A program made the position numbers and the translations under genes. The notes beneath the pieces were generated by a model, which did no database searches, was not told where the DNA came from, and worked only from the letters and a program-made list of their open reading frames with translations. This document shows, piece after piece, positions 3 through 16,998 of a stretch of DNA of 24,000 nt. This stretch comes from Planctomycetales bacterium ZRK34 (lineage in GTDB: Bacteria > Planctomycetota > Phycisphaerae > Phycisphaerales > Zrk34): NCBI GenBank assembly GCA_014873095.1, contig CP050848.1:2515850-2539849 (forward strand), in the 5' to 3' direction. Position 1 is the stretch's first letter, and the number at the start of each line of letters is the position of its first letter.

Positions 3-503
3 CTGGGGCGCGACATCCCGACGTCGTACTTCGCCATCTGCGACATGCAGTATCCTTCCCGCCGCAACTTCAAAGGCCTGCTGGCCATTCACGATGACAA
101 GACCGTCGATCGGCCCAAGGAAGCCTACGCGGCCGTACAGCACCTGACGGCGGTCTTCGACGACACCGTCCAGCGCATCAAGGACTTCGACGCCGACATC
201 ACCGCCGGCGGCGAAGCGAAGGATTACACGGTGTTCGGCTACAGCGCCCCCAAGGGAACGATCGTCACGCTGTGGCGCAGTTCCGACACGCCGGGCAAGA
301 AACCCGAGGTTGAGACCGCGATCGTGACGCTGAAGAACACGACGCTGAAAAACCCTGTCTGGGTGGACCTGCGCACCGGCGATGTCTGCGCGATCGATGC
401 GTCGAATGTGAAAACCACCAGCGGCCACGTGACGATTCATGGCGTGCCGGTGTATGACTCGGTGATTCTGCTGGCTGAGCGCGATGCGATTCCGATGCGC
501 TGA
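3..503 (+). CDS. 3' end of a glycoside hydrolase gene (5' end outside window); C-terminal beta-sandwich region, paralogue of the 7200..8654 product
   Basis: Frame 3 is open from base 3 (LGRDIPTSYFAICD precedes the first Met at 45) to the stop at 501-503. NFKGLL..RPKEAYAAVQHLTAVFD and NPVWVDLRTGDVCAID..VPVYDSVILLAE align with NYKGLL..PKPAFVAYQHLCALFD and KPVLIDPLTGKAYRLD..APLLEYPLLITD of the 7200..8654 protein. Confidence 0.6.
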   Translation: MGRDIPTSYFAICDMQYPSRRNFKGLLAIHDDKTVDRPKEAYAAVQHLTAVFDDTVQRIKDFDADITAGGEAKDYTVFGYSAPKGTIVTLWRSSDTPGKKPEVETAIVTLKNTTLKNPVWVDLRTGDVCAIDASNVKTTSGHVTIHGVPVYDSVILLAERDAIPMR

Positions 504-542
504 TCGCCCGGCTGAATAAAACGTCAATTGCCGCCGTGATAG

Positions 543-582
543 CCGCGGAGCAACGCTCCGCGGACCGCGACGCGTTGCGTCG
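543..582. terminator. two adjacent GC-rich hairpins between convergent genes (possible factor-independent terminators, no U-tract)
   Basis: CCGCGGAG(543-550)/CTCCGCGG(556-563) with a 5-nt loop, then CGACGC(568-573)/GCGTCG(577-582) with a 3-nt loop. They lie between the stop at 503 (+) and the stop at 586 (-). Confidence 0.25.
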
Positions 583-585
583 AGG

Positions 586-1443
586 CTATTGAGGCGTCGG
601 AGTCTTCAGGTACCCCAGCGAGTTTAAAAACGCATCCATCTTCGCGAGGGTGTCACGGTAGAACCGTCCGCCGTGTTCGGTTGGACGGTAGAAGCCGTGC
701 TCGGCATCGTCGTAGAGATACAACTCGCTGCGTGCGCCGACGTCCTGCATCTTCTTCTGAAACGCCTCGGCGGTTTGGACACGGATCACGTGATCCTTGC
801 GCCCGAGAAACACGATGGCCGGCGGCATGCCTTTGCGGATGTTGTGCATCGGGCTGATCTGCTGCCAGTAGGCCTTGACGCGGCCGTACCCGTAGCCGCT
901 TTTGGAGTTGTCATACACGGGGTTGAACAGCACCAGGGCATTGGGCACGGGTGAGATGTTTTGATCGTCGGTGTCTTCGTTGAAGGCGTCGACCACGGCT
1001 GTGGCCGCGGCGACATGACCGCCGGCGGACCCGCCCGACGCGGCGATGCGATCGGGGTCGACACCGAGTTCATCCGCATGGGCTCGCACGTAACGGATGG
1101 CGCTCTTGCCGTCCTTGACGCACTCGATCGGGGTCGTGTGATTCCGCTCCTTGACGCGATACTCCGCCGACGCGGCCCACATGCCGCGCGCGGCCAGATG
1201 GGCGCACTGCGGATAAAACTGCGTGGGCGTGCCGCGGTTCCACCCGCCGCCGAAGAAGAACACGATCGCCGCGGCGCGGTCGCCCTCGGCGCGGCCCGCC
1301 GGTTCGAACACGTGAAGCTTCAACTCCACATCGCCGACCGTCTTGTACGTGATGATCCGCGTCGGTTGCGGCAGGGTATCCTCCGCCCGCACGTGGTCGG
1401 CGGACAGACAACACATCAGCATGAAGCAGACAACACAACGCAT
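586..1443 (-). CDS. secreted alpha/beta-hydrolase, esterase/lipase-like (probable carbohydrate esterase)
   Basis: ORF 586..1659 trimmed to the ATG at 1443, which gives a signal-like N-terminus (MRCVVCFMLMCCLSADHVRA). The longer form would overlap the upstream gene ending at 1451. Motifs: FFFGGGW oxyanion-hole type, GGSAGGH nucleophile elbow, C-terminal DDAEHGF. Confidence 0.8.
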   Translation of the reverse strand: MRCVVCFMLMCCLSADHVRAEDTLPQPTRIITYKTVGDVELKLHVFEPAGRAEGDRAAAIVFFFGGGWNRGTPTQFYPQCAHLAARGMWAASAEYRVKERNHTTPIECVKDGKSAIRYVRAHADELGVDPDRIAASGGSAGGHVAAATAVVDAFNEDTDDQNISPVPNALVLFNPVYDNSKSGYGYGRVKAYWQQISPMHNIRKGMPPAIVFLGRKDHVIRVQTAEAFQKKMQDVGARSELYLYDDAEHGFYRPTEHGGRFYRDTLAKMDAFLNSLGYLKTPTPQ

Positions 1444-1450
1444 ACGACAA

Positions 1451-2296
1451 TCAATACCCATACGCCGACGCCGGTGGATCATACTCGCCGAGGTCTTGTT
1501 GGTACATGTAAGCGGCGCGCGAACCATTGGTGGACCACGAGTGGATGTAGATGGTGTCCTTGAAGTCGACCCAACCGGCCGAGCCGTCGACGTAGACCTG
1601 GTTGCCGCCTTCGGGGCGGCCGTCGGCGTGGTTCGACTTGTGCGAGGGCAGGTCGACATAGGCGTACGGCGAGGATGAACTGCTGCCCTGGCCCCAGGCG
1701 TAGTCGATTTTGATCATGCTGTCAGTGGCGAGCACCCAACTGCCGCGCGCGTTGCTGACGGTCACGGGACTGCGCGACCGAATCCCGCCGGGGTTCGACG
1801 GGTTGTACCACTTGGTGATGCCGCCGAAGTAGGAGTAGTTGGTGGTGATGACCGGCTTGCCGGAGGAGGTGGCCTGGTACTGGGTTTTAAACTCGCGGCT
1901 GGGGCAGTCCCATACCGGGGCGTCGACGGGTGTGCCGTCGACGATGGTGATCGACGGGTCGATCTTGGCGATGGTGCCGAGCCGTTCCCATTCGCCGATC
2001 CAGTTCTTCGCGGCGTCGAATTTTGACCAGTCCTTGCTGCTGTCCGAGGCGTAAGCGCCCGAGCTGGTGATGTTCAACTGGACATTTCGCCGGGCGCAGG
2101 GGATGTAGTTGCCCTTGTTGCTGACGGTATACATGGTCGCGGCGGTGCCGATTTCGTGTAGATGCGCCGCACAGACCGAGCGCTTGGCCACCTCGCGGGC
2201 ACGACTCAGCGACGGCAGCAGAATCGCGATCAACAGCGCAATGATCGACACGACCACGAGCAACTCGATCAGTGTGAAACCTTGTCGGCGCATCAT
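1451..2296 (-). CDS. prepilin-type N-terminal cleavage/methylation domain protein (type II secretion pseudopilin-like, DUF1559-like)
   Basis: Start ATGATG at 2296 is preceded by GGAAAAG. The leader MMRRQG|[22 protein letters not shown] is a classic class III signal, followed by [18 protein letters not shown]. The C-terminus [21 protein letters not shown] resembles the H-X9-DG end of DUF1559 proteins. Confidence 0.85.
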
Positions 2297-2307
2297 TACT
2301 TTTCCTG

Positions 2308-2334
2308 AAGCCCACGGATCCAATCCGTGGGCTT
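2308..2334 (-). repeat. 27-nt perfect palindrome/hairpin, copy A (AAGCCCACGGAT-CCA-ATCCGTGGGCTT)
   Basis: 12-bp perfect stem, 2308-2319 pairing with 2323-2334. It fills the 45-nt gap between the PEP-CTERM stop (2342) and the pilin-like start (2296). Copy A matches 9893..9919 at 26 of 27 positions. Confidence 0.8.
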
Positions 2335-2341
2335 TGACTGT

Positions 2342-3592
2342 TCAATCTGAACGTCGGCGCAGTCCCATCAGGCCCAGCATCATCACGCCGGCGCCCAGCG
2401 CGGTCGGCGTCGGAATCGCCACGAGGTCGAATCCGTTGATGACGTTCGCGCCGGAGCCTGCATCGGTGATTCGGAAGATCACATCGTTCAGGCCGTCGGC
2501 CTGCAAGTAAAAGCTGCCGAAACCGAAGGGATCGGGGCTCGACCCGGTGGAGTAATCAACATTCAGCGCGCCGGTGAGGAAGGTCGATCCACCGTCGGTG
2601 CTGTAGAGGATGTCCACCGTGCCGTGATCGACCACTTTGTCGTGAAAATACCCGGTGAATTCATAGGTGCCGGCGTCGAGATTGCTGACGGTGATGTCGA
2701 GGTTCGTGGCCTGATTGAACACGAAATCGCGCAGCAGGTCGGACCTGTCAGGATCTGTCGTGACCGGCCCGCGATCGCGGTCGGGGTTTGCGCTGAAGGG
2801 GCCGACGGAAATATCGACGGTGCCGACATCAGTCGCCACGCCGGTGACACCCGACTGCGTCACGGACAGGTAGCCCGTCTGGGTGTAGCTGACGCCGGCG
2901 TCGTTGTCGCCGGACACCTCGTTGTCGTTGTCGTTGAAGTCGACGTAGAGCCCTTTGCGGCGGTCGAGCGTGAAAGCGTTGATCAGGTCCGCCTTGGTGG
3001 AGTTCGGATTGAACACGCGGACGATCACATCGTTGACGCCGTCGGCATAGAAGGAGAAGTCGCCTTTACCGATCGCGGCGACGCTGGTGCCGGTGGTGTA
3101 GGCCACGTCATCGATGACCTGCACAAAGCTGGACCCGGTGCCGGTGGTGTCGACGAACAGGTCGGCGACGCCCTGGTTGTTGCCGGAATCGTGGAAGAAC
3201 CCAGTGAACTTGTAATGACCGGCCGACAGGTCGGAGAGGGTGATCAGCAGGCCGTTGGTGGCGGCGGGGGTGAACACGAAGTCGCGGGCCAGGCCGCCGA
3301 ACCCATCGCCCGCGGTGATTGTCTCCCGATCGAAGAAGCGCGTGTCCGTACCCGAGAGGGTGACATCCACGGTGCCGCTGACGCCGAAATTCGCCGACAG
3401 GCCGGTGAAGGAATACGAATCGGTGCCGGCGTCCTGACTGCCCGATAGGCTGATGTAACCGGCGGGATGGGTGTTGTCATCGTCGCCGGCCTCTTCGAAG
3501 TCGATCATGAGAGCCGCCCGAACCGGCATGGCGATCAACATGACAAACGCCGACACGATTGCGATCTGGTAGATCCGTTGCATCATATTCAT
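2342..3592 (-). CDS. PEP-CTERM-anchored protein with two tandem copies of an unassigned beta-rich domain
   Basis: Start at 3592 (MNMMQRIYQIAIVSAFVMLIAMPVRA signal peptide; ATG at 3586 also possible), directly after GAAAGAGG. The C-terminus IPTPTALGAGVMMLGLMGLRRRSD has the sorting-signal layout: motif, hydrophobic helix, Arg cluster. Internal repeat: LARDFVFTPAATNGLLITLSDLSAGHYKFTGFFHD.. versus LLRDFVFNQATNLDITVSNLDAGTYEFTGYFHD.. Confidence 0.8.
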   Translation of the reverse strand: MNMMQRIYQIAIVSAFVMLIAMPVRAALMIDFEEAGDDDNTHPAGYISLSGSQDAGTDSYSFTGLSANFGVSGTVDVTLSGTDTRFFDRETITAGDGFGGLARDFVFTPAATNGLLITLSDLSAGHYKFTGFFHDSGNNQGVADLFVDTTGTGSSFVQVIDDVAYTTGTSVAAIGKGDFSFYADGVNDVIVRVFNPNSTKADLINAFTLDRRKGLYVDFNDNDNEVSGDNDAGVSYTQTGYLSVTQSGVTGVATDVGTVDISVGPFSANPDRDRGPVTTDPDRSDLLRDFVFNQATNLDITVSNLDAGTYEFTGYFHDKVVDHGTVDILYSTDGGSTFLTGALNVDYSTGSSPDPFGFGSFYLQADGLNDVIFRITDAGSGANVINGFDLVAIPTPTALGAGVMMLGLMGLRRRSD

Positions 3593-3599
3593 CCTCTTT

Positions 3600-4949
3600 C
3601 TACTGGGGCTGCAAAGCGGGCTTCGACAGCCCGGTGGTCTCATCGTTTTCAGGCAGCGGGGTGGCGGCGATGCCATAGGTTCCCGCCTGCGGATTGGGCT
3701 CGGCCTGAACCGGTCCGAAAGTCACGCGACCAGCCTCGGGCACATTCATCGCCCAGATGGTGTAAGGCACATCAATCGATTGACCGGGACCGATGGCGAG
3801 CGGCTTGCCGCCGGCGGCGGCGTCGAGGCCGATCTTCCAGCCGGTGTCGACAAAGCCCTGCTCGGTGACCCAGGTCGGCACCGGGCAGCGATCGCTTAGA
3901 AAGACATACAGCCGTGCGGGGCGCGACAGCGTGACGGTGACATGCAGGTCGTACTTGTTTTTGTCGGACATGGCTGTGCGGACATAGTCAGCGCCGTGCA
4001 GCGCCGCCGGCATGCCTGAATCATCCAGGCCGTTCCACTGGTAATTGCGGTCCGAGTGAGCCGGCGCGTCTTCGTTCAGCGCGTGGTGCTCGATGGTGTA
4101 TTCATGACCGCTGTTGGATTCGACGTCGACGATCAGCAGGTTCTGCCGAACGCTGGCGATGCCCTGATCGTTGAGGCTGACTTCATCACCGGCCAGGAAG
4201 TTGCGGTTCAAACCGTTGATATCCAGCACGGCCACGCGCCCTTCGATCACGCGGACGATCGTGTCGTTCGGCGGATCGACCGTCACCTCGAAGGCTGTGC
4301 CCAGGTCGACGATCGAGCCGTGCGGCGTGGCGAGGGTGAAACCCGACGCGGCGGTCGGAACGAACGCCCGCACTTCGCCATGACGAAGCTGCCCGCGATT
4401 AGGGCCGACGATTTCGAATTCACAGGGACCGACCAGATCGACCACGGCCGTGGAATCGAACATCACCTGCGCCGTGCCGGAAACCAGTCGAATCGGCCCC
4501 GCGCTCAACCGCCCGCCAAGCGAGGTCGGTTGTGAATCATCCGCGAAGACGGCGCCATGGCTGTTGGTCAACAAGGCGACGGCGCTGGGGCCCTGTACTG
4601 CCGCAGGCGCAGGCTGCTGGGGTGAGTTCGTAGTCGTGGTAATCAACCCGATCAAACCCACCAGGCAGATCAGCGCCGCCATGGCCGCGACCGGCTGCCA
4701 CCGCCAACTGTGATGCGCCGGTGACTGTGAATCGACCTCGTTGTATCCATTCCACCACGCTGAATCGTCGGACTCCGACCCGGTCGTCAGGCTGATCGGC
4801 TCGCGCAGATGCTGATCGATCACGGCGCGGTCCAGCAGTTGACGTCGCAGCGCCGGATCGCTCCGCAGAACAGTCTGCAGATCGTCAAAACGCGCCGCGG
4901 TGATGCGGTCGTCCAGGTATTCAGAAATCAGTTCGGCGTGATCAATCAC
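3600..4949 (-). CDS. FecR-type transmembrane anti-sigma factor with an extra uncharacterised C-terminal domain
   Basis: GTG start at 4949 overlaps the sigma stop (GTGATTGA). N-terminal anti-sigma helix region (ELISEYLDDRITAARFDDLQTVLRSDPALRRQLLD). One TM segment (VAAMAALICLVGLIGLI). FecR-like core (GFTLATPHGSIVDLGTAFEVTVDP..VRVIEGRVAV). About 170 further residues have no motif I can assign. Confidence 0.8.
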   Translation of the reverse strand: MIDHAELISEYLDDRITAARFDDLQTVLRSDPALRRQLLDRAVIDQHLREPISLTTGSESDDSAWWNGYNEVDSQSPAHHSWRWQPVAAMAALICLVGLIGLITTTTNSPQQPAPAAVQGPSAVALLTNSHGAVFADDSQPTSLGGRLSAGPIRLVSGTAQVMFDSTAVVDLVGPCEFEIVGPNRGQLRHGEVRAFVPTAASGFTLATPHGSIVDLGTAFEVTVDPPNDTIVRVIEGRVAVLDINGLNRNFLAGDEVSLNDQGIASVRQNLLIVDVESNSGHEYTIEHHALNEDAPAHSDRNYQWNGLDDSGMPAALHGADYVRTAMSDKNKYDLHVTVTLSRPARLYVFLSDRCPVPTWVTEQGFVDTGWKIGLDAAAGGKPLAIGPGQSIDVPYTIWAMNVPEAGRVTFGPVQAEPNPQAGTYGIAATPLPENDETTGLSKPALQPQ

Positions 4950-5478
4950 CGGTCTTCTCCTGCGGCGGGGTCAACCGGTCCTGAATGCAGCGGGCCAGGG
5001 TTTCACGGATGCGGTGCAGCGCCACGTAAATCGCATTGGGCGTCATGCTCAGTCGGTCGGCCATCTTCTGGATCGAAAGATTCTCCCGGTAGCGCATGGC
5101 GATGATGCTTCGCGAGCGGTCGACCAAGGCTTCGAGGCACTCGGCCAGCGCCAGCTTGCGATCGGTCATCTGATCGGTCAGCAGCTCGGCGTCAGCGGCA
5201 AGCTGATCCATCAGGTCCGGGGCGAAGACCAGCCGATCGCGACGGTGGCGGCGGAGGTGATCGACCGCTTCGTGACGGGCGATCGCCATGACCCACGACA
5301 TGAACGGCCGCTCGGGGTCGTACTGATCGATCTTCGTCGCCGCCTTCAGGGCCGCGGACTGCAACACGTCTTCAGCATCCGAGGCCGACCGCAGAATCGT
5401 CAGCAGATACGTCATCACCACCGGCTGGGCCTTGACCCAGTGGCGGGCAAACAGTTCATTGCGTTTCTGCTCTGTCAT
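4942..5478 (-). CDS. ECF (group 4) RNA polymerase sigma-70 family factor
   Basis: Region 2 (DAEDVLQSAALKAATKIDQYDPERPFMSWVMAIARHEAVDHLRR) and region 4 HTH (LSIQKMADRLSMTPNAIYVALHRIRETLARCI). The ATG at 5478 is preferred over the TTG at 5517 listed in the ORF track. Confidence 0.85.
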   Translation of the reverse strand: MTEQKRNELFARHWVKAQPVVMTYLLTILRSASDAEDVLQSAALKAATKIDQYDPERPFMSWVMAIARHEAVDHLRRHRRDRLVFAPDLMDQLAADAELLTDQMTDRKLALAECLEALVDRSRSIIAMRYRENLSIQKMADRLSMTPNAIYVALHRIRETLARCIQDRLTPPQEKTGD

Positions 5479-5568
5479 GCCTTCTACCGTAAGATACTGA
5501 ACTGCATCGTGTTGCAAAACATCTGCAACCTTGTCCGAGCTGCGATGGCACGCTGTGCCGTCAATACA

Positions 5569-5594
5569 TACGTCAGGGCCGACTGTTTCTTACA
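5569..5594 (-). promoter_or_regulatory. candidate ECF-type promoter of the sigma/anti-sigma operon (TGTAAG-N16-CGTA)
   Basis: Minus strand reads TGTAAG (5594-5589), AAACAGTCGGCCCTGA (16 nt), CGTA (5572-5569). The 13 fixed positions and the spacing are identical to the divergent site at 5636..5661. Confidence 0.55.
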
Positions 5595-5635
5595 ACGTTT
5601 CGGTGGGTTTTTTTCTGCCTTTTTATCAACGGGCC

Positions 5636-5661
5636 TGTAAGAAATGTGTCGCTGCATCGTA
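5636..5661 (+). promoter_or_regulatory. candidate ECF-type promoter of the GH28 operon (TGTAAG-N16-CGTA)
   Basis: Plus strand reads TGTAAG (5636-5641), AAATGTGTCGCTGCAT (16 nt), CGTA (5658-5661). It sits about 55 nt upstream of the GH28 ATG at 5716. It is the mirror partner of 5569..5594. Confidence 0.55.
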
Positions 5662-5715
5662 CGACCTGTCAGAGGCTTGCGTAATCGACGCGGCAACCAG
5701 CGACCGGAGGCTTGC

Positions 5716-7185
5716 ATGTTTGTCGGACGGGCTGTCAGCAGGGGCGTGCGGGGGGTAGGGTGGTTGATGTTTGCGATGGTGGTGGTCGGGTTGTGCCGAC
5801 CTTTGAGCGCGGAGATCGATCCGCGGTTGGATGTGGCGCGCGATGCACCGGCCGAGATCGCCCCGCTGAATACGCCATTCGACATGCCGCAACTTCAGCG
5901 GCCGAAGTTCGCCGACCGGACGTTCAACATCCGCGACTACGGGGCTGAACTCGGCGGCGAGAAGATGTGCACCGAGGCGATCGCCAAAGCCATCGACGCC
6001 TGCGCCAAAGCCGGCGGCGGGCGCGTGCTGGTGCCCGAAGGCGACTGGCTGACCGGGCCGATCCATTTGCAAAGCAACGTGAATCTTCATCTGGCCGACG
6101 GCGCGGTCGTGCGGTTCAGTCAGAAATTCGAAGATTACCTGCCCGTCGTGCTGATCCAGCGCGGCGGCGTGCGATGCTACAACTACTCGCCGCTGATCTA
6201 CGCGCGCGATTGTGAGAACATCGCCGTCACCGGCGAAGGCGACGCCACGCTGGACGGGCAGGGCAAAGTCTGGTGGCCGTGGAAGAAAAAGCAGCCGGGC
6301 ATGAAATGGCTGCTGTCAGATGAAGGCGGCAAGGCCCCGCTGGAAGAGCGCGTCTTCGGCACGCCCGAGCAGGGGGTGCGCCCGCCGTTCGTGCAGTTTT
6401 ACAGTTGTCGCAACGTGCTGCTGGAAGGCTTCACGATTACGAACACGCCTTCGTGGACACTGCACCCGGTGTACTGCGAAAACGTGATCGTGCGTCGGCT
6501 GAATGTACTCACCTACGGCGCGTACAACGGCGACGGCATTGACCCCGATTCGTGTCGCAACATGCTGATCGAGTACTGCTACTTCGACAGCGGCGATGAT
6601 TGCGTCGTGCTCAAAGCCGGTCGAAACCACGACGCCTGGGCGGTCGGTATCCCCTGTGAAAACATCGTGATCCGCCACTGCGCGATGCGGCACGGCCACG
6701 GCGCGATGACGATCGGCAGTGAGATGTCCGCCGGCGTGCGCAATGTGTTGGCCCACGATCTGATCGTCAACGGCACGCAACGCGCCATCTATGTAAAGAC
6801 TCAGCCCGGGCGCGGCGGCATCGTCGAGAATATCCACGTCCGCGATGTCGACATCCTCGGCGTCGGCGGCCAGGCGATCTACCTGAATACACGCTACACA
6901 TCAGGCAACCCGGACTCGCGCCTGCCGATCCTGCGCAACATTCACATCAACAACGTCCGCTGCGAAAAGGCCAAGCGCGCCATCAAAATCCTGGGCCTGT
7001 CCGAACAGTGGATCGAAAATGTCAGCTTCACCGACCTGAAGATTCACGCGGACAAAGGCGTCGAGACGCGCTACGTTCGCGGGCTGCGCTTTGATCGGGT
7101 GAAGATCATCACGGACGATTCGCCGGTGTTCACCATGCAGGACACCGAAGTGATTAAACCTGCTTCCGACTTACCTTCCAACTGA
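5716..7185 (+). CDS. glycoside hydrolase family 28 (polygalacturonase/rhamnogalacturonase-like), secreted
   Basis: The ATG at 5716 is preceded by GGAGG with a 6-nt spacer. Signal-like N-terminus (GWLMFAMVVVGLCRPLSA). Beta-helix GH28 signature set: FNIRDYGA, NGDGIDPDS, SGDDCVVLK, HGHGAMTIGSE, RAIYVKT. Confidence 0.9.
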   Translation: MFVGRAVSRGVRGVGWLMFAMVVVGLCRPLSAEIDPRLDVARDAPAEIAPLNTPFDMPQLQRPKFADRTFNIRDYGAELGGEKMCTEAIAKAIDACAKAGGGRVLVPEGDWLTGPIHLQSNVNLHLADGAVVRFSQKFEDYLPVVLIQRGGVRCYNYSPLIYARDCENIAVTGEGDATLDGQGKVWWPWKKKQPGMKWLLSDEGGKAPLEERVFGTPEQGVRPPFVQFYSCRNVLLEGFTITNTPSWTLHPVYCENVIVRRLNVLTYGAYNGDGIDPDSCRNMLIEYCYFDSGDDCVVLKAGRNHDAWAVGIPCENIVIRHCAMRHGHGAMTIGSEMSAGVRNVLAHDLIVNGTQRAIYVKTQPGRGGIVENIHVRDVDILGVGGQAIYLNTRYTSGNPDSRLPILRNIHINNVRCEKAKRAIKILGLSEQWIENVSFTDLKIHADKGVETRYVRGLRFDRVKIITDDSPVFTMQDTEVIKPASDLPSN

Positions 7186-7199
7186 TCAGGAGTCTGCCC

Positions 7200-8654
7200 G
7201 TGCAACCGCTCAGTCGCCGTCGTGTGATGCAACAGGGTCTGGCCGCGTCGCTGGCCTGTGGACTGTCGCCGAATCTTCCTCGCCTGCTGGCTGAAGAGGC
7301 CGCCGCTGAGATCACGGACAAGCCGTATGTGTTTGAACTGCCGGCAGCCGGGCGCATCATGCCGCGGCCGAGCAAGGCGATCGCCTCGTCGGGGCTTTCG
7401 GTCGGATTTGAAACGCTCGACCGCCAGCATTTTGACCCGACCAAGACCTACGGGCCGCTGTCGAAGCTCGGCGTCAAGTGGGCGCGCTGCCAGACGGGGT
7501 GGTGCCGCTGCGAGAAGGAAAAGGGCAAGTACACGTTCGACTGGCTCGACGAGGTGGTCGATTCGCTGCTGGCGATCGGCGTGCAGCCGTGGTTCAACCT
7601 CGGGTACGGCAATCAGCTCTACACGCCGCGCGCCGATGAGACCGCGGTGGGCTGGGCGCCGATTTTCGATGAAGAGCCCCGCCGGGCGTGGGTCAACTTC
7701 ACCCGCGCCATCGCCGAGCACTTCGCCGATCGCGTCAAGTGCTGGGAGATCTGGAACGAGCCGAACATTCGCGGCTTCTGGAAGCCGAACAAGCCCGACC
7801 CCGTCGACTATGCCGCGCTGGTCAAGCTCACCGCGCCGGAGATTCGCCAGCGCGTGCCCGAAGCGGTGATCATCGGCGTGGCGTCGGCGCACATTCCGAT
7901 GAACTACATCCAGACGTGTTTCGAGCAGGGCATGGGTGACCACATCGACTGCCTGTCGTACCACCCCTACCGCCCGCAACCCGAAGCCGGCTACGAAGAC
8001 GAAATCAACAAGCTGCGCAAGATCGTCGACGCGCACAACCCGAAGATCCGCCTCTGGCAGGGTGAAAACGGCGCCCCGTCCAAGGGCGGCAAAGGCAGCG
8101 CCGGCGCCCTGTCGAATCTCAACTGGTCCGAGACGAGACAGGCCAAGTGGCTCACACGCCGCATCCTCAGCGATCTGCGCCTCGATATCGAATTGACCAG
8201 CTACTTCCACCTGGTCGACCTGGTCGGCTACCGCGGCATCACCAACTACAAAGGCCTGCTCCGCGGCGCTGACTACTCGCCCAAGCCCGCCTTCGTCGCC
8301 TATCAGCATCTGTGCGCCCTGTTCGACCACGATGCCAAACACGACCCGGCGCTGACGCTGGACCTGGTCGGTGAATCCAAAACGCACATGCTCGACGCGG
8401 GATTCACCCGCAAGGGATATGCGCTGTATGCGTACTGGATGCCGGCGAGTCTGTTCGAGGCGTGGGCGGCGAGGCCGATCCGTTTGAGTCTGCCCCATCG
8501 CGCCGATGCCCAACTGCAAAAGCCGGTGCTGATCGATCCGCTGACCGGCAAGGCCTATCGGCTCGACGCATCAGACCGCACCGACAAAACGTTGACCGTT
8601 CAGGCTCCGCTGCTGGAGTACCCCCTGCTGATCACCGACCAGAGCCTGCTGTGA
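7200..8654 (+). CDS. clan GH-A (TIM-barrel) glycoside hydrolase, GH39/GH5-like, with Tat-type leader
   Basis: GTG start at 7200 lies 7 nt after AGGAG and 14 nt after the GH28 stop. Twin-arginine leader (SRRRVMQQGLAASLA). Acid/base motif CWEIWNEPN and nucleophile-type WQGENGAP. C-terminal beta-sandwich. Confidence 0.75.
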   Translation: MQPLSRRRVMQQGLAASLACGLSPNLPRLLAEEAAAEITDKPYVFELPAAGRIMPRPSKAIASSGLSVGFETLDRQHFDPTKTYGPLSKLGVKWARCQTGWCRCEKEKGKYTFDWLDEVVDSLLAIGVQPWFNLGYGNQLYTPRADETAVGWAPIFDEEPRRAWVNFTRAIAEHFADRVKCWEIWNEPNIRGFWKPNKPDPVDYAALVKLTAPEIRQRVPEAVIIGVASAHIPMNYIQTCFEQGMGDHIDCLSYHPYRPQPEAGYEDEINKLRKIVDAHNPKIRLWQGENGAPSKGGKGSAGALSNLNWSETRQAKWLTRRILSDLRLDIELTSYFHLVDLVGYRGITNYKGLLRGADYSPKPAFVAYQHLCALFDHDAKHDPALTLDLVGESKTHMLDAGFTRKGYALYAYWMPASLFEAWAARPIRLSLPHRADAQLQKPVLIDPLTGKAYRLDASDRTDKTLTVQAPLLEYPLLITDQSLL

Positions 8655-8682
8655 GCGGGTCGACAACCGGAGCGACCGTTTG

Positions 8683-9612
8683 ATGAAGCAATTGTCATGT
8701 GTGCTGATGCTGCTGGGTGTGTTGGCGTCGAACGTCGCGCTGGGCGCGGGTGAATCGACCGCGCCGAAGCCGACGTTCTCCAACGTGCCGTACGGCCCGC
8801 ACGAAAAAAATGTCCTCGACTTCTGGCAGGCGCCCGGCGAAGGGCCTCACCCGCTGCTGATCTGCATCCACGGCGGAGGCTGGATCAACGGCAGCAAGGC
8901 CGACTGGACCGATTCGGGTCGATACCCCGTCCGGCCGCCGCAGGCCTTTCTCGAACGCGGCATCTCCTGCGCCACGATCAACTATCGGCTCACGCCCGGC
9001 TCGCCGCTGCCGGCTCCGGTTCACGACGCCGCCCGGGCGGTGCAGTTTCTCCGATCCAAGGCCAAAGACTGGAACCTGCGCACCGACCGCTTCGTACTGT
9101 TCGGCGGCAGCGCCGGAGCCTGCACATCCATGTGGCTCCTGCTGCACGACGACCTGGCCGACCCGTCATCATCCGATCCGATTCTGCGACAGTCGACGCG
9201 CGTCGCCGCCGCCGGCACATGGATCGGACAGACCAGCATCGATCCCAAGGTCGTCGCCGACTGGCTGGGCCCCAACGGCATCAAGCACTCAATGATCGCC
9301 GCGGCCGTCGGCCAGCGCGACATCCAAACCGTGCTCGAACACTACGACCAGTACCGCGCCCTGTACCAGGAGTTCTCTCCGATCAATCACGTGGACGCCG
9401 CTGATCCGCCGCTGTTCATGAGCTACAGCGGCAACATGAAGCTCCCGGCCACCAGCGCGGGCCACGGCATTCACCATCCCCTGTTCGGCGTGAAGATGAA
9501 ACAAAAGTCCGACCGCCTCGGCCACGAATGCTACCTGGTGATCCCCGGCGTCAACACCTCATCGAAGTATTCCAACATCAACGATTTCCTCTTCGACAAA
9601 CTGCTGAAGTGA
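8683..9612 (+). CDS. secreted alpha/beta-hydrolase, esterase/lipase-like (probable carbohydrate esterase)
   Basis: ATG at 8683 (the TTG at 8680 is the ORF-track start). Signal peptide MKQLSCVLMLLGVLASNVALGA. Motifs: ICIHGGGW oxyanion-hole type, GGSAGAC nucleophile elbow, late GHGIHHP. Confidence 0.8.
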   Translation: MKQLSCVLMLLGVLASNVALGAGESTAPKPTFSNVPYGPHEKNVLDFWQAPGEGPHPLLICIHGGGWINGSKADWTDSGRYPVRPPQAFLERGISCATINYRLTPGSPLPAPVHDAARAVQFLRSKAKDWNLRTDRFVLFGGSAGACTSMWLLLHDDLADPSSSDPILRQSTRVAAAGTWIGQTSIDPKVVADWLGPNGIKHSMIAAAVGQRDIQTVLEHYDQYRALYQEFSPINHVDAADPPLFMSYSGNMKLPATSAGHGIHHPLFGVKMKQKSDRLGHECYLVIPGVNTSSKYSNINDFLFDKLLK

Positions 9613-9668
9613 CCCGCCCCCCATCGGCATGTCTGTACCAGGACCGCGCCGCGGCCCGTTTGTGCCAT

Positions 9669-9716
9669 AAAAAAATCCCGCGTTGACCTTCAGTAGGAGG
9701 GGAAGATCAACGCGGG
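9669..9716 (-). terminator. rho-independent terminator (minus-strand orientation) closing the 9951..10778 transcription unit
   Basis: 10-bp stem CCCGCGTTGA(9677-9686)/TCAACGCGGG(9707-9716). On the minus strand it is followed by A then U7 (complement of A7 at 9669-9675). Confidence 0.65.
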
Positions 9717-9892
9717 CGGAGGAGAGAAAAAAAGGCGCAGAACGATTAAGTATCGAATTGAGCAACTTTCATGCCAAACTCAAAAACAGGCTTTGCGGGC
9801 CACAGGTACGGGTTTGGATATGACGGATGATGTCCACAAGTACCATTCCGGGTCCAGGACTGTGCCAATGTGGCCACACGGGTCGATGAACA

Positions 9893-9950: not shown

Positions 9951-10778
9951 TCAGGCTCGGCGGCGGGGTCTGCGGAGGGCCAGGCCGCCCAGGGTCGCCA
10001 GGGCGAGGCCGATCGTGCCGGGCTCGGGAACGACGCTCAGGCGGATCGCGCCGATGGCTGACCAGGTGCCGGCGCCTTCGGTATCCGTGGTGCGGACGCT
10101 CAGCGTAGAGCCGGTGAGCAGCAGATTACTGACGCTCATGTAGCGGGCGTTGTTGTTGCCGTCGCGAATCCCCTGAAAGCCCTTGGTCTGCGTGGTCATC
10201 CCGGTCCAGCCATCCCCGGTGGAAGCGGACCCGTCTTTTTCCAGAACGGTGAAGCCGGACCAGCTCGAGCCGCCGTCGAGTGAGTATTCGTAGAAGCCTT
10301 CCGATGTCGCGGTGACGCGCGAAGTCCACACGTCGACACTGGCGACTTCGCCGGGTGTCAAGCCGCTGAAGGTCATGGTGAACGATTCATTGTTGGTGTT
10401 GGTGCTGGTGTAGAAGTAATCGCCGGCGGCGCCGGTGTTGGCCAGTGAGCCGTCGGTCGTGACCCACGAGGGGCCGCCGGAGGCGTTGTTGAACACCGCC
10501 GCGCCACCGTTGCCGGAGTCGGTGATGGTGCCGGACTTGTTCAGCGTCACGCTGGTCGGGGCGAGGCTGTAATCGTTGTGGATCGCACTGCCGTTGACCT
10601 CCGCCGGCGTGGCATAGATGTTCCATGCATTGCTGCCGCCGGGGTATGACCCGCTGTCGGTGGTATTGAAATCCACCAGGAAAGTCTCAGCCATGACATG
10701 GTGAGCGCCGAGCAGAATCACGACAGCAGACAAAAACAGCACAAGCAGTTGATGTGGGTGTCTCATCGCTTTCCTCAT
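9951..10778 (-). CDS. PEP-CTERM-anchored secreted protein, single beta-rich domain related to the 2342..3592 repeats
   Basis: Signal peptide (LLVLFLSAVVILLGAHHVMA). An alternative ATG at 10766 sits 5 nt after GAGGA. Canonical C-terminus VVPEPGTIGLALATLGGLALRRPRRRA. FLVDFNTTD and FTMTFSGLTPGE echo LYVDFNDND and LDITVSNLDAGT of the 2342..3592 protein. Confidence 0.8.
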   Translation of the reverse strand: MRKAMRHPHQLLVLFLSAVVILLGAHHVMAETFLVDFNTTDSGSYPGGSNAWNIYATPAEVNGSAIHNDYSLAPTSVTLNKSGTITDSGNGGAAVFNNASGGPSWVTTDGSLANTGAAGDYFYTSTNTNNESFTMTFSGLTPGEVASVDVWTSRVTATSEGFYEYSLDGGSSWSGFTVLEKDGSASTGDGWTGMTTQTKGFQGIRDGNNNARYMSVSNLLLTGSTLSVRTTDTEGAGTWSAIGAIRLSVVPEPGTIGLALATLGGLALRRPRRRA

Positions 10779-14136: not shown

Positions 14137-15078
14137 TCATGCCCCGGCGCTGCCGGCGGCGGCCATGTCGCGCAGGCGTTCGACATCACGCAGGGGCGGG
14201 TCGCCGAAGTGGCGCTTGTAGTCACGGCTGAAATGCGATGCGTCGTCGTAGCCGACCTGGTAGCCGGCCTCCGCGGCGTCGAGGTTTTCGTTGAGCATCA
14301 GGCGGCGCGCTTCCTGGAGCCGCAGGCGTTTTTGAAATTGCAACGGGCTCATCGCGGTCACCGATTTGAAGTGAGCGTGGAACCCGGACACGCTCATGTT
14401 CAACTGCCGCGCGACCTGCTCGATCTTCAGCGGCTTGTCGAAATTATCCCGGATGGACTCAACCGCACGGGCCATGCGATGGGCCTGGCCGCTGTACGTC
14501 GCCAGGTGGCGCATGCGGTCGCCCTGGGCGCCGGTGAGCAGACGGAAAATAATCTCGCGAATCACCAGCGGCGCAAGAATCGGATATTCATTCGGCGTCT
14601 CGGTCAGCCGCACCAGTCGCAACGTGGCGTCGAGCAGATTCACATCCAGCGGACTGACATCCAGCGCTTTGACGCTGCGGTCGCGGTGTGACAGCACACG
14701 GTCGCAGTCGACCATGACTGAGGTGACGACCGCCGGATCAAGAACCAGTCGAAAGCCCAAGTACGGCTCGCGCGGCGAGGCCTTGATCACTTTGCCTGAT
14801 ATGGGCAGCTGCATCGTGGTGATCAGGTAGTGCGCCGGATCATATCGGAATGTTTCATCAGCGAGTGTGATCTGCTTGCTGCCCTGAGCGATCACGCAGA
14901 ACGCAGGCTCGTAGACGCCGCAGGTTCCGCCGGTCGGTTCGGACATTCTGTTCAAGTGTACGCCTGGTTGAACCTCGGTCGTCCCGTCGTGCGGCAGGGC
15001 ATGTGCGATGCGATCGGCGAGTTCCTGCTGGTCGGCCAGGCGGCGCTGGCCGGTTCGTGTGTTGTTCGCATTCATCAT
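14137..15078 (-). CDS. AraC-family transcriptional regulator with AraC_N-type (cupin-like) sensor domain
   Basis: C-terminal double HTH (IEQVARQLNMSVSGFHAHFKSVTAMSPLQFQKRLRLQEARRLM..AGYQVGYDDASHFSRDYKRHFGDPP). The start is uncertain. ATG 15078 follows GAGG. ATG 15099 is possible. The ORF-track ATG at 15153 lies upstream of a perfect TATAAT, so it is unlikely. Confidence 0.8.
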   Translation of the reverse strand: MMNANNTRTGQRRLADQQELADRIAHALPHDGTTEVQPGVHLNRMSEPTGGTCGVYEPAFCVIAQGSKQITLADETFRYDPAHYLITTMQLPISGKVIKASPREPYLGFRLVLDPAVVTSVMVDCDRVLSHRDRSVKALDVSPLDVNLLDATLRLVRLTETPNEYPILAPLVIREIIFRLLTGAQGDRMRHLATYSGQAHRMARAVESIRDNFDKPLKIEQVARQLNMSVSGFHAHFKSVTAMSPLQFQKRLRLQEARRLMLNENLDAAEAGYQVGYDDASHFSRDYKRHFGDPPLRDVERLRDMAAAGSAGA

Positions 15079-15127
15079 GGCCTCATCGTAGTCGGGCATG
15101 TCGACCGTCACGCGGCGGCAGGGCGTT

Positions 15128-15155
15128 TCTTGGAGAATTATACAATCATCCAAGA
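15128..15155. promoter_or_regulatory. 7-bp inverted repeat around an AT-rich core in the AraC/ADH divergent region (candidate operator/promoter)
   Basis: TCTTGGA(15128-15134), 14 nt (GAATTATACAATCA), TCCAAGA(15149-15155). The spacer contains a perfect TATAAT on the minus strand (15142-15137). Confidence 0.35.
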
Positions 15156-15320
15156 GGATCGTCCTATAGCCTTGTCAAAAAACACGTATAGAGTTCTGCC
15201 GTACGGAAAACACCGCCGCGTGGGGTCGGATTTTATCTGGATTCACATGCAAGGCGGCTCGGACGACTGACAAACCGCATGGTCGGGAAAAACAAGCTCG
15301 CAAACCCCAGGAGCGAACCC

Positions 15321-16382
15321 ATGTACGACACCAAAGCCTATTCCGCTGCCAGCAAGACCTCCCCGCTCGCCTCAGCCACGATTCCGCGGCGCGAGCCGAC
15401 CGAGCGTGATGTGCAGATCGAAATTCTCTTCTGCGGAATCTGCCACTCAGACCTTCACTCCGTGCGCGACGAGTGGCACGATGTCATGCCGACGGTTTAC
15501 CCCATCGTGCCCGGTCACGAGATCGTCGGCCGCGTCACGAAGGTCGGCTCGGCGGTGAGCAAATTCAAACCCGGCGATCTGGCGGCGGTCGGCTGCATGG
15601 TCGATTCGGATCACACCTGTCCCCAGTGCCAGGCCGATCACGAGCAGTTCTGCCCGCACATGGCGCTGACGTACAACTCCCCGGATCGACACGGCACGGC
15701 GCCGGTCACCTACGGCGGTTATTCCGACTCGGTCGTCGTCGATGAACGCTTCGTGCTGCGCGTGCCGGAGCATCTGGATCTGGCCGGGACAGCCCCGCTG
15801 CTGTGCGCCGGCATCACGACGTATTCGCCGATGCGCCGCCGGCAAGTCGGCCCTGGCAAGAAGGTCGGCGTCGTCGGCCTCGGTGGGCTCGGCCATATGG
15901 GCGTCAAGTTCGCCCATGCCTTCGGAGCCCACACCGTCGTGCTCACCACCTCGCCCGGCAAGGCGGAAGACGCCCGCCGCCTCGGTGCTGACGAGGTTGT
16001 CGTCTCCCGCAACGCTGACGAGATGAAAAAACACGCCGGCAGCTTCGACTTCATACTCGACACCGTCTCGGCGAATCACGACATCAACGCCTACCTGAAC
16101 CTGCTGGCTGTCGACGGCAACCTCACGCTGGTGGGCGCGCCGACCGAGCCGCTGAACGTCGCCGCCTTCTCGGTGATCATGGGCTGCCGCAGCCTGTCCG
16201 GCTCGATGATCGGCGGCATCGCCGAAACCCAGGAAATGCTCGACTTCTGCGGCGAACACAACATCACCGCCGACGTTGAAGTCATTCCGATTCAGAAAGT
16301 CAACGAAGCCTACGAGCGCCTGCTCAAGTCCGATGTGAAGTACCGTTTCTGCATCGACATGGCCTCGCTGAAATCCGAGTAA
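15321..16382 (+). CDS. zinc-dependent NAD(P)-alcohol/aldehyde dehydrogenase (cinnamyl-alcohol dehydrogenase / YahK-like family)
   Basis: The ATG at 15321 lies 7 nt after AGGAG. Catalytic zinc motifs GICHSDLH and PGHEIVG. Structural zinc [12 protein letters not shown]. Rossmann fold [13 protein letters not shown]. Confidence 0.9.
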
Positions 16383-16467
16383 CACCGCCATCATCACCTG
16401 GAACGCAAACGTGTTGATGAGCAGAACGGAAAGTTCCACGGTGCAGTTTCAATCGGAGCAGCACAGG

Positions 16468-16998
16468 ATGTCTCGACATCACAATGCAAACGGAGTCGTC
16501 CGCCGCGATTGTTTGAAGGTCGCAGCAGCCTCTGCGGCTGCCTGGTTGGCGAGCGCCTTCGCTCCGGCTCGGCTTCTTCTGGCACAACGAAAGGAAAACA
16601 ACATGGATATCAAACGAGTTGGTTCAACCCCCTCGATGAACGGCCCGGACGATTGGTTCACCGGTTCGGTGCGTGTCGAGATGCTGATCGATGTGAAGGA
16701 TCCCTCGCGGGTTTCCGCCGCCAGCGTCACGTTCGAGCCGGGCGCTCGAACCGCCTGGCACACGCACCCGGTCGGTCAGCACCTGATCATCACGTCCGGC
16801 TTCGGATGGGTGCAACAGGAAGGCGGCCCCATCGAAGAGGTTCGGCCCGGCGATGTGGTGTGGTTCCCGCCCGACGTCAAGCACTGGCACGGCGCTTCGC
16901 CCACCAATGCCATGACGCACCTGGCGATCCAGGAATCACACAACGGCAGCCCCGTTGAGTGGCTCGAACACGTCACGGATGAGCAGTACAAAAAATGA
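16468..16998 (+). CDS. cupin-domain protein (small Mn-cupin / bacterial hydroxynitrile-lyase-like family) with Tat-type leader
   Basis: Cupin core [52 protein letters not shown]-terminal [22 protein letters not shown] resembles a twin-arginine signal. An alternative internal start ATG 16603 follows AAGGAAAA. Confidence 0.7.

Follow-up and report, generated by a model that had tools for sequence, protein, structure and literature searches.

Probable Back-to-Back ECF Sigma Promoters between a Sigma Factor Operon and a Glycoside Hydrolase Operon

In Bacillus subtilis, promoters of the SigW/SigX type, which belong to extracytoplasmic function (ECF) sigma factors, read TGAAAC or TGTAAC, then 16–17 nucleotides (nt), then CGTA or CGAC. 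The subject here is a pair of motif copies, each a TGTAAG hexamer followed by CGTA, that lie back to back between an ECF sigma operon and a glycoside hydrolase operon. They are found in a 24-kb stretch of contig CP050848.1, the whole of which is called the window below. Judged by sequence conservation, the two sites are very probably promoters read by RNA polymerase carrying the adjacent ECF sigma (4942-5478, minus strand). The host is an uncultured marine bacterium of the Planctomycetes-Verrucomicrobia-Chlamydiae (PVC) group, probably a planctomycete.

Nearly half of the ECF sigmas that have been surveyed have three or fewer predicted promoters, often within 2 kb (Todor et al. 2020, PMC7776599). 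FecI-like sigmas are over-represented among those without a significant promoter prediction. For the sigma factor RpoE, it has been shown experimentally that Arg171 sets the base at -31, Ser172 that at -34, and Asn84 those at -12/-13 (Todor et al. 2020, PMC7776599).

The Motif Pair

The minus-strand copy (5594..5569) reads TGTAAGAAACAGTCGGCCCTGACGTA, and the plus-strand copy (5636..5661) reads TGTAAGAAATGTGTCGCTGCATCGTA. On both strands the spacing from TGTAAG to CGTA is 16 nt. The two hexamers are separated by 41 nt (5595..5635), in which a run of seven T lies at 5608-5614 and a run of five T at 5620-5624. An earlier note on this DNA had described two divergent copies with this gap and these runs, and all of them are present.

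The complete pattern, TGTAAGAAA-N13-CGTA, occurs exactly twice in the window, each time oriented toward the operon it would transcribe. A pattern search with up to two mismatches gives 2 matches in the 24 kb, versus 0.09 expected from shuffled sequence. When three mismatches are allowed, three further weak matches appear, which is about the chance level.

The earlier note had put the probability of a chance match at 4^-13. This figure overstates the improbability, since a comparison of the two copies with each other had itself served to pick the 13 fixed bases. A fair test was made by shuffling the 237-nt intergenic region 20,000 times. A divergent exact 9-mer inverted repeat arose in 6.7% of the shuffles, and such a repeat accompanied by an identical 4-mer at equal offset arose in 0.21%. 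Taken by itself, the pair is moderately improbable by chance (about 2x10^-3). It can be argued from this fair post-hoc value, which is far from 10^-8, that the pair is a functionless chance similarity. That explanation is scarcely credible, being effectively refuted by the conservation, cross-validation and covariation described below. What makes the motif pair convincing is the comparative evidence from related loci.

A third, partial copy, cGTAAGAtA-N11-CGTg, is located at 5488-5511 (plus strand), within the sigma leader and antisense to sigma. It has the 9-mer CTGCATCGT in common with the plus-strand promoter. Its spacing is 2 nt short, it scores 4.1 bits by the weight matrix introduced below, and its CGT is lost in the related locus L016. 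This partial copy is probably not a promoter.

Conservation across Related Loci

Orthologues of the window sigma were found in five lineages, at 99%, 85%, 83%, 80%, and 61% identity. The contigs with the 99%-identical sigma come from marine metagenomes, TARA included, and the 61%-identical sigma is that of locus L018. The footprint was taken from four lineages in which both sides are present: the window and L015, L016, and L017, whose sigmas are 80–85% identical to that of the window.

Across these four lineages, 25 of 25 box positions are invariant, versus 48 of the 212 other intergenic positions (23%; Fisher 6e-15). Invariant runs of at least 4 nt are limited to the four boxes, which are the longest, and one CAAC in the sigma leader. 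On the sigma side, L015–L017 keep TGTAAGAAA-N13-CGTATG with differing 13-nt spacers, and the more distant L018 reads cGTAAGAAA-N14-CGTAT. On the divergent side, TGTAAGAA and CGTA are retained in L015, L016, and L017 with a spacer longer by one base, so that 17 nt separate hexamer and CGTA there, versus 16 nt in the window. The minus-strand copy starts 116 nt upstream of the sigma start codon at 5478, and the equivalent position is -112 to -115 in L011–L017. Between close relatives the same pattern holds: in L011, which is 96% identical, nine of nine intergenic differences fall outside the boxes, seven of them in 5595..5635. The motif had been expected to recur in orthologous loci, and alignment of these loci bears this out, since both copies are conserved in orientation and position while the spacers vary.

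An independent check was provided by a weight matrix built from L015–L018 only, with the window left out, and used to scan the whole window. The two sites score 27.7 (minus) and 24.2 (plus) bits, and the next match scores 11.7. In shuffled windows the maximum averages 11.6 and peaks at 21.5. A relaxed pattern, searched in 408 kb of fetched loci, was found only in the orthologous intergenic regions and at two stray sites. Within the DNA surveyed, that is the window and the fetched loci, the regulon is these two promoters.

The divergent promoter is also kept in L017, where GH28 and GH39 (members of glycoside hydrolase families 28 and 39) are absent and the nearest gene is an esterase orthologue. 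The promoter thus survived while the gene content of the operon changed. In this locus (5766-5988), the divergent promoter lies about 170–220 nt upstream of the esterase start (ATG 5819 or 5765). This leader, much longer than its counterpart in the window, may have been left behind by a deletion that removed GH28/GH39.

These results bear on the possibility that only the sigma-side copy works, with the plus copy a decoy or relic and the GH28 operon transcribed from some other promoter. The plus site does score slightly lower (24.2 vs 27.7 bits), and its spacer differs between lineages (16 vs 17 nt). However, ECF sigmas tolerate spacers of 16–18 nt, the plus-side boxes are invariant in four lineages and persist in L017 after the change of gene content, and a housekeeping-type promoter was not detected in the intergenic region. 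A non-functional plus copy is accordingly given very little credence.

Another explanation is that the inverted repeat TTTCTTACA...TGTAAGAAA is the operator of a dimeric or looping transcription factor, and that CGTA is incidental. The repeat is a perfect one of 9 nt between divergent operons, and the gap between its arms (the -35 boxes of the promoter interpretation) is fairly constant in relatives, at 39–42 nt. On the other hand, a 9-mer inverted repeat alone is not rare in shuffled sequence, as given above, and the CGTA boxes show the same invariance as the 9-mers, at a promoter-type spacing of 16–17 nt. A variation of 3 nt in arm distance would rotate the half-sites relative to each other. 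Finally, where an unrelated sigma has the same recognition helix, GTAAG-N16-CGTC occurs once upstream, without an inverted partner. An operator is thus most improbable, and back-to-back promoters remain the preferred interpretation.

Recognition Residues and Promoter Bases

The sigmas were aligned to RpoE, with residue numbers that agree with those of Todor et al. 2020. At the positions of Arg171, Ser172, Phe175, Arg176, and Asn84, all five motif-bearing orthologues have Tyr, Val or Ala, His, Arg, and Asp. None of nine more distant homologues has this combination.

Two types of recognition helix can be compared. The Tyr type, NA[IVT]Y[VA]xLHR, is found at eight of the fetched loci, and 8/8 carry GTAAG-N16/17-CGT at -74 to -115 on the sigma strand. 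The Arg type, GAVRVxLHR, has GTAAC at -96 to -107 in eight of the nine loci with upstream sequence, followed by CGTA in six and by CGAA in two. No crossovers between Tyr/GTAAG and Arg/GTAAC occur, against a background of 0.0074 per 260-nt strand. In both groups Val is accompanied by T at -34, and Asp goes with CG in 14 of 16 promoters; L039 and L041 read CGAA. Tyr thus goes with G, and Arg with C, at the base that the published code assigns to the Arg171 residue.

The helix is not confined to close relatives. Sigmas of L007 (124-681), L009 (2797-3354), and L010, three of the eight Tyr-type loci, have a helix, NAIYVALHR, identical to that of the window sigma at about 30% overall identity. They belong to unrelated metagenome-assembled genomes, labelled Gammaproteobacteria and Candidatus Paceibacter, and have GTAAG-N16-CGTC upstream. 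The L009 and L010 promoters are nearly identical despite the differing taxonomic labels, and this mismatch may reflect binning errors. In L103, whose sigma is the partner of a more distant anti-sigma (P0031), cGTAAGATT occurs without CGTA, and the sigma has Ser and Ala at the reading positions.

The earlier note had named the adjacent sigma as the driver of both operons. The conserved motif and the Tyr/Arg covariation support this; dependence on the adjacent sigma itself is something we infer. Alternatively, a different, paralogous ECF sigma could read both sites, in which case the adjacent sigma would be a target and not the driver. PVC-group bacteria are rich in ECF paralogues (1134 ECF sigmas in 23 planctomycete genomes), and one with the same recognition helix is conceivable elsewhere in the genome. 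Against this, the motif is co-conserved with the adjacent sigma in every orthologous locus, it fits that sigma's own reading residues (Tyr with G, Arg with C), and autoregulation is the usual arrangement for ECF sigmas. A paralogous driver is therefore considered unlikely, though it is the least improbable of the four alternatives.

A Model of the Circuit

With the adjacent sigma as the reader of both sites, the locus could work as follows. TGTAAGAA would serve as the -35 element and (T)CGTA, 16 nt past TGTAAG, as the -10 element. The minus promoter would drive an autoregulated, probable five-gene operon encoding the sigma, a FecR-domain anti-sigma, a PEP-CTERM-like protein, a pseudopilin-like protein, and an esterase. 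The plus promoter would drive GH28, a GH39-like hydrolase, and another esterase.

At rest, the sigma would be sequestered by the membrane anti-sigma. It would be freed by an extracytoplasmic signal, probably a fragment of a pectin-like or algal glycan that acts via the outer domains of the anti-sigma. The freed sigma would then turn on both operons together, with positive feedback, and its role would be that of a local regulator in charge of two promoters.

A bolder proposal concerns the signal. The locus might be a transducer-free ECF glycan circuit, in which the exchangeable C-terminal module of the anti-sigma binds a polysaccharide fragment directly and the Tyr-bearing sigma reads the atypical GTAAG. 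The co-transcribed PEP-CTERM-like and pseudopilin-like proteins would possibly help. This proposal is tentative, and it is held with much less confidence than the promoter pair.

Several points weigh against the model. The support for the promoter pair is comparative throughout. The independent clades behind the covariation number about four of the Tyr type and three of the Arg type (Fisher ~0.03). The footprint is narrow, limited to the clade of at least 61% identity and to lineages with the same recognition helix; homologues that are 39–47% identical (L099–L102) have no recognisable motif. Classical FecI-type sigmas are usually not autoregulated. The FecR domain of the anti-sigma (PF04773) is borderline, at 24.7 bits versus a cut-off of 24. 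Finally, the model of its C-terminal domain has no significant Foldseek match in the PDB.

Among named genomes, planctomycetes have the closest sigmas, at 27–36% identity. A genome search with the sigma returned only relatives of at most 50% identity (at most 35% for longer matches). A metagenome scan with the five orthologues returned only relatives of at most 42% identity, which are without the GTAAG motif and are the source of the Arg-type set.

Putative Promoter Elements and Predicted Starts

In the sigma-operon promoter, the putative -35 element (5586..5594, minus strand) matches TGTAAGAAA exactly. Its core is GTAAG, with an unusual G at the position usually called -31. The element is invariant in the window, L015, L016, and L017, and L018 differs in its lower-case first base as given above. 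The -10 element (5567..5572, minus strand) is CGTA, extended to a conserved CGTATG that is invariant across four lineages.

In the GH28-operon promoter, the -35 element (5636..5644, plus strand) is again an exact match to TGTAAGAAA. Its TGTAAGAA part is invariant in the orthologues, where the ninth base is T or C versus A in the window. The -10 element (5657..5661, plus strand) is the invariant run (T)CGTA.

The region between the -35 boxes (5595..5635) would be shared by both promoters as upstream sequence. Its two A/T tracts, the T runs mentioned above, lie about 48–56 and 58–66 nt upstream of each predicted start. Tracts are found in all orthologues, with variable sequence. By analogy with the promoters of Todor et al. 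2020 (PMC7776599), they are possible shared UP-element-like subsites.

Transcription starts were predicted by taking the A of CGTA as the -10 base. For the sigma operon, the start is predicted at 5558..5562 (minus strand), most likely at G 5559, which lies 10 nt after the A of CGTA and would give a leader of about 81 nt. The pyrimidine-G pair there is conserved in L015–L017. For the GH28 operon, the predicted start is 5668..5672 (plus strand), most likely A 5671, with a leader of about 45 nt; a C/A pyrimidine-purine pair is found at 5670/5671. Leader lengths, pyrimidine-purine starts and UP-like tracts all resemble those of predicted ECF promoters (Todor et al. 2020, PMC7776599).

Scans for other elements gave little. 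A promoter scan found no housekeeping-type promoter within 5400-5800. A terminator scan gave three weak terminator-like matches, in a region not expected to be transcribed, and an Rfam scan gave no relevant RNA family. A hairpin formed by the inverted repeat was considered and rejected, as the sequence folds no better than when shuffled (z = -0.02). Conserved structure was sought in the sigma leader and none was found.

One weaker candidate lies in the sigma sense. TTTGCA-N16-TATCTT at 5492-5519 (minus strand) matches 8/12 of the housekeeping consensus, which is below the scan threshold. It ends 13 nt before ATG 5478 and contains the invariant CAAC (5511-5514); part of it is still present in L016, which reads TTTACA-N16-CATCTT. 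Possibly it acts as a weak basal promoter with a near-leaderless transcript.

Short repeats also surround the plus-strand start region. A direct repeat, GAGGCTTGC, occurs at 5672 and 5707 (plus strand), and the 5707 copy is the Shine-Dalgarno/start region of GH28. In addition, TCGTACGACCTGTCAG at 5657 (plus strand) is similar to TCGGACGGGCTGTCAG at 5723 (plus strand). These direct repeats may be due to chance.

Genes around the Probable Promoters

The earlier note placed the pair between an ECF sigma operon and a GH28 operon, and the flanking genes agree with this. On the minus strand lie an ECF sigma of the TIGR02989 family and a FecR-domain anti-sigma, with overlapping genes, and on the plus strand lies the GH28 operon. 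The short start codons that the note favoured are also the ones called on near-identical contigs, namely ATG 5478 (sigma, 178 amino acids, aa) and ATG 5716 (GH28, 489 aa).

Sigma operon. The sigma gene (4942..5478, minus strand, start ATG 5478) encodes 178 aa with the Pfam domains Sigma70_r2 and r4_2, and is called at the same length on 99%-identical contigs. Its best NCBIfam model is TIGR02989, which the protein matches over profile positions 3-158 of 158 with 148.9 bits (cut-off 124.55). This model, Sig-70_gvs1, stands for the Rhodopirellula/Verrucomicrobium ECF subfamily; the literature searched on it and on TGTAAG had nothing relevant. The anti-sigma candidate follows (3600..4949, minus strand, 449 aa, FecR domain), with an 8-nt overlap between its start and the sigma stop.

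Translation of the third gene (2342..3583, minus strand) gives a secreted protein of 413 aa that carries a signal peptide and a tail of PEP-CTERM-like type. It contains two internal repeats (...RDFVF...ITLSDLSAGHYKFTGFFHD... and ...RDFVFNQ...ITVSNLDAGTYEFTGYFHD...) and matches no Pfam or NCBIfam family. A counterpart occupies the same position in L011–L014, L017, and L018; in L017 and L018 it is a gene of similar size after the anti-sigma. The protein may be part of the sensing module.

Next comes a protein with a prepilin-type N-terminal methylation motif (1451..2296, minus strand; PF07963, TIGR02532), 281 aa long as called on L011. An alpha/beta-hydrolase esterase (586..1422, minus strand; BD-FAE / Abhydrolase_3 in Pfam) is the probable last gene of the operon; the intergenic gaps are short on L011.

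Plus-strand operon. The GH28 glycoside hydrolase (5716..7185, plus strand, ATG 5716; PF00295) is a protein of 489 aa with a signal peptide. Its best NCBIfam model is alpha-D-galacturonidase BT4155 of Bacteroides, below the model cut-off. A GH39-like glycoside hydrolase (7200..8654, plus strand; PF01229) and a BD-FAE esterase (8680..9612, plus strand; Pfam), the third gene of the operon, follow. This esterase is 74% identical to the gene nearest the divergent promoter in L017.

Upstream of the start at 5716 there is a conserved GGAGG, the signal peptide comes after it, and both Shine-Dalgarno sequence and ATG are conserved in L015 and L016. The upstream ATG at 5644 is ATA in L011, and the 5644-5716 region differs in length among relatives. 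The evidence supports the short starts.

Flanks. Collinearity of the window with L011, at about 96% identity, extends from 3 to 9747, and beyond this the two diverge. After the esterase, L011 has a sulfatase and a FliD gene, and the window has a PEP-CTERM protein (9951-10778, minus strand) and ThiC. This is a strain-level rearrangement directly after the plus-strand operon. Farther on, an AraC-family regulator (14137-15153, minus strand) is divergent from a zinc-dependent alcohol dehydrogenase and a cupin protein (15279-16998, plus strand). They form a separate small regulatory unit, unrelated to the promoter pair.

The Candidate Anti-Sigma Factor and Its Possible Sensor Module

The anti-sigma consists of an N-terminal helical region, one transmembrane segment, the FecR domain, and a C-terminal beta-sandwich of about 180 aa. 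The predicted structure of the C-terminal domain is a beta-sandwich of moderate confidence (predicted local distance difference test, pLDDT, 64; predicted template modelling score, pTM, 0.67). A search of PDB sequences with the anti-sigma gave no significant match.

Relatives of the anti-sigma (P0030, P0033–P0035, P0037, and P0038) have the N-terminal/transmembrane/FecR part in common, at about 50% identity, and differ in their C-terminal domains. The C-terminal module, encoded by the 3600-4163 part in the window, is Laminin_G_3 in P0037 and CBM96 in P0038, and is unannotated here. This suggests that sensor modules have been swapped between paralogous ECF circuits. Direct glycan sensing by the anti-sigma is plausible, and carbohydrate binding would be a guess from the domains of the relatives.

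Significance

The analysis yields a sequence-level regulatory map of a carbohydrate-degradation locus, with one sigma, two promoters, eight genes, and predicted starts, and it corrects two start codons. ECF sigmas are numerous in the PVC group and almost none has a known target; here the targets can be read from the sequence.

Tyr-GTAAG and Arg-GTAAC are a natural specificity pair, one residue and one base apart. Such a pair could be used to test or extend the ECF recognition code, and could provide orthogonal promoter/sigma parts. If the transducer-free circuit is true, it would be a third independent coupling of glycan to sigma, beside the Bacteroides SusC/anti-sigma and the clostridial RsgI/SigI systems.

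Comparison with Known Systems

Local ECF regulators. The overall design, an autoregulated ECF sigma with an adjacent divergent operon as local target, is already well documented and introduces no new principle. The window resembles the autoregulated local regulators of Todor et al. 2020 (PMC7776599) in many respects: bipartite promoters with a 16–18-nt spacer upstream of the sigma and of a divergent gene, a small regulon within 2 kb of the sigma, A/T tracts that precede the -35 element, a predicted start at a pyrimidine-purine pair, and a residue at the Arg171 position that tracks the -31 base. What is distinctive here is that the -35 core is GTAAG and the reading position holds Tyr, together with the tight symmetric arrangement. 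In that published set, the common cores are GGAAC/GTAAC, whereas the window has GTAAG, with Tyr in place of Arg. Unlike that set, the window promoters also form a tight, symmetric back-to-back pair around one shared 41-nt A/T-tract region, as read here from sequence only.

SigW and SigX. The window sites have the hexamer, the 16-nt spacing, and the CGTA of the SigW/SigX type, and the Arg-type relatives read TGTAAC-N16-CGTA. Unlike in that type, the hexamer in the window ends in G and not in C. The window sigma scores 65 and 57 bits against the SigW and SigX equivalogs, whose cut-offs are 243 and 194.

FecI/FecR/FecA. As in this system, there is a FecR-domain anti-sigma, whose gene overlaps that of the sigma by 8 nt. 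Unlike in this system, there is no FecA-like transducer nearby, and none of the 25 best NCBIfam matches of the sigma is to a model named FecI. Unlike FecI-like sigmas, the window sigma has a clear autoregulatory promoter. Three features show that the locus is not of the FecI/FecR/FecA type: the missing transducer, a sigma that is not FecI-like, and the autoregulation of that sigma.

SigI/RsgI. The SigI/RsgI pair of Clostridium thermocellum (PMC4711584) offers a functional analogy only, as its anti-sigma has an outer part with interchangeable carbohydrate-binding modules; in relatives of the window anti-sigma, Laminin_G_3 or CBM96 modules occupy the corresponding place. Unlike the window pair, SigI does not belong to the ECF (group 4) sigmas, and RsgI is not known to have a FecR domain.

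Bacteroides polysaccharide utilisation loci. A domain search of the large open reading frames in the 24-kb window found no TonB-dependent receptor or plug and no SusC/SusD, and no TonB-dependent transducer is among the genes called on L011–L018. The locus is therefore not a Bacteroides-type polysaccharide utilisation locus, because the SusC/SusD pair is missing. In such loci, unlike in the window, SusC/SusD or a TonB-dependent transducer is expected within reach, and the sigma is of another subfamily. Nevertheless, the ECF/anti-sigma/SusC systems of Bacteroides (Martens et al. 2009, PMC2709373; Ravcheev et al. 2013, PMC3878776) are similar in having an ECF sigma and a FecR-family transmembrane anti-sigma beside the presumed target hydrolases, with a glycan expected as the signal. 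The Bacteroides ECF promoters were left unpredicted (Ravcheev et al. 2013, PMC3878776), whereas those of the window can be read directly.

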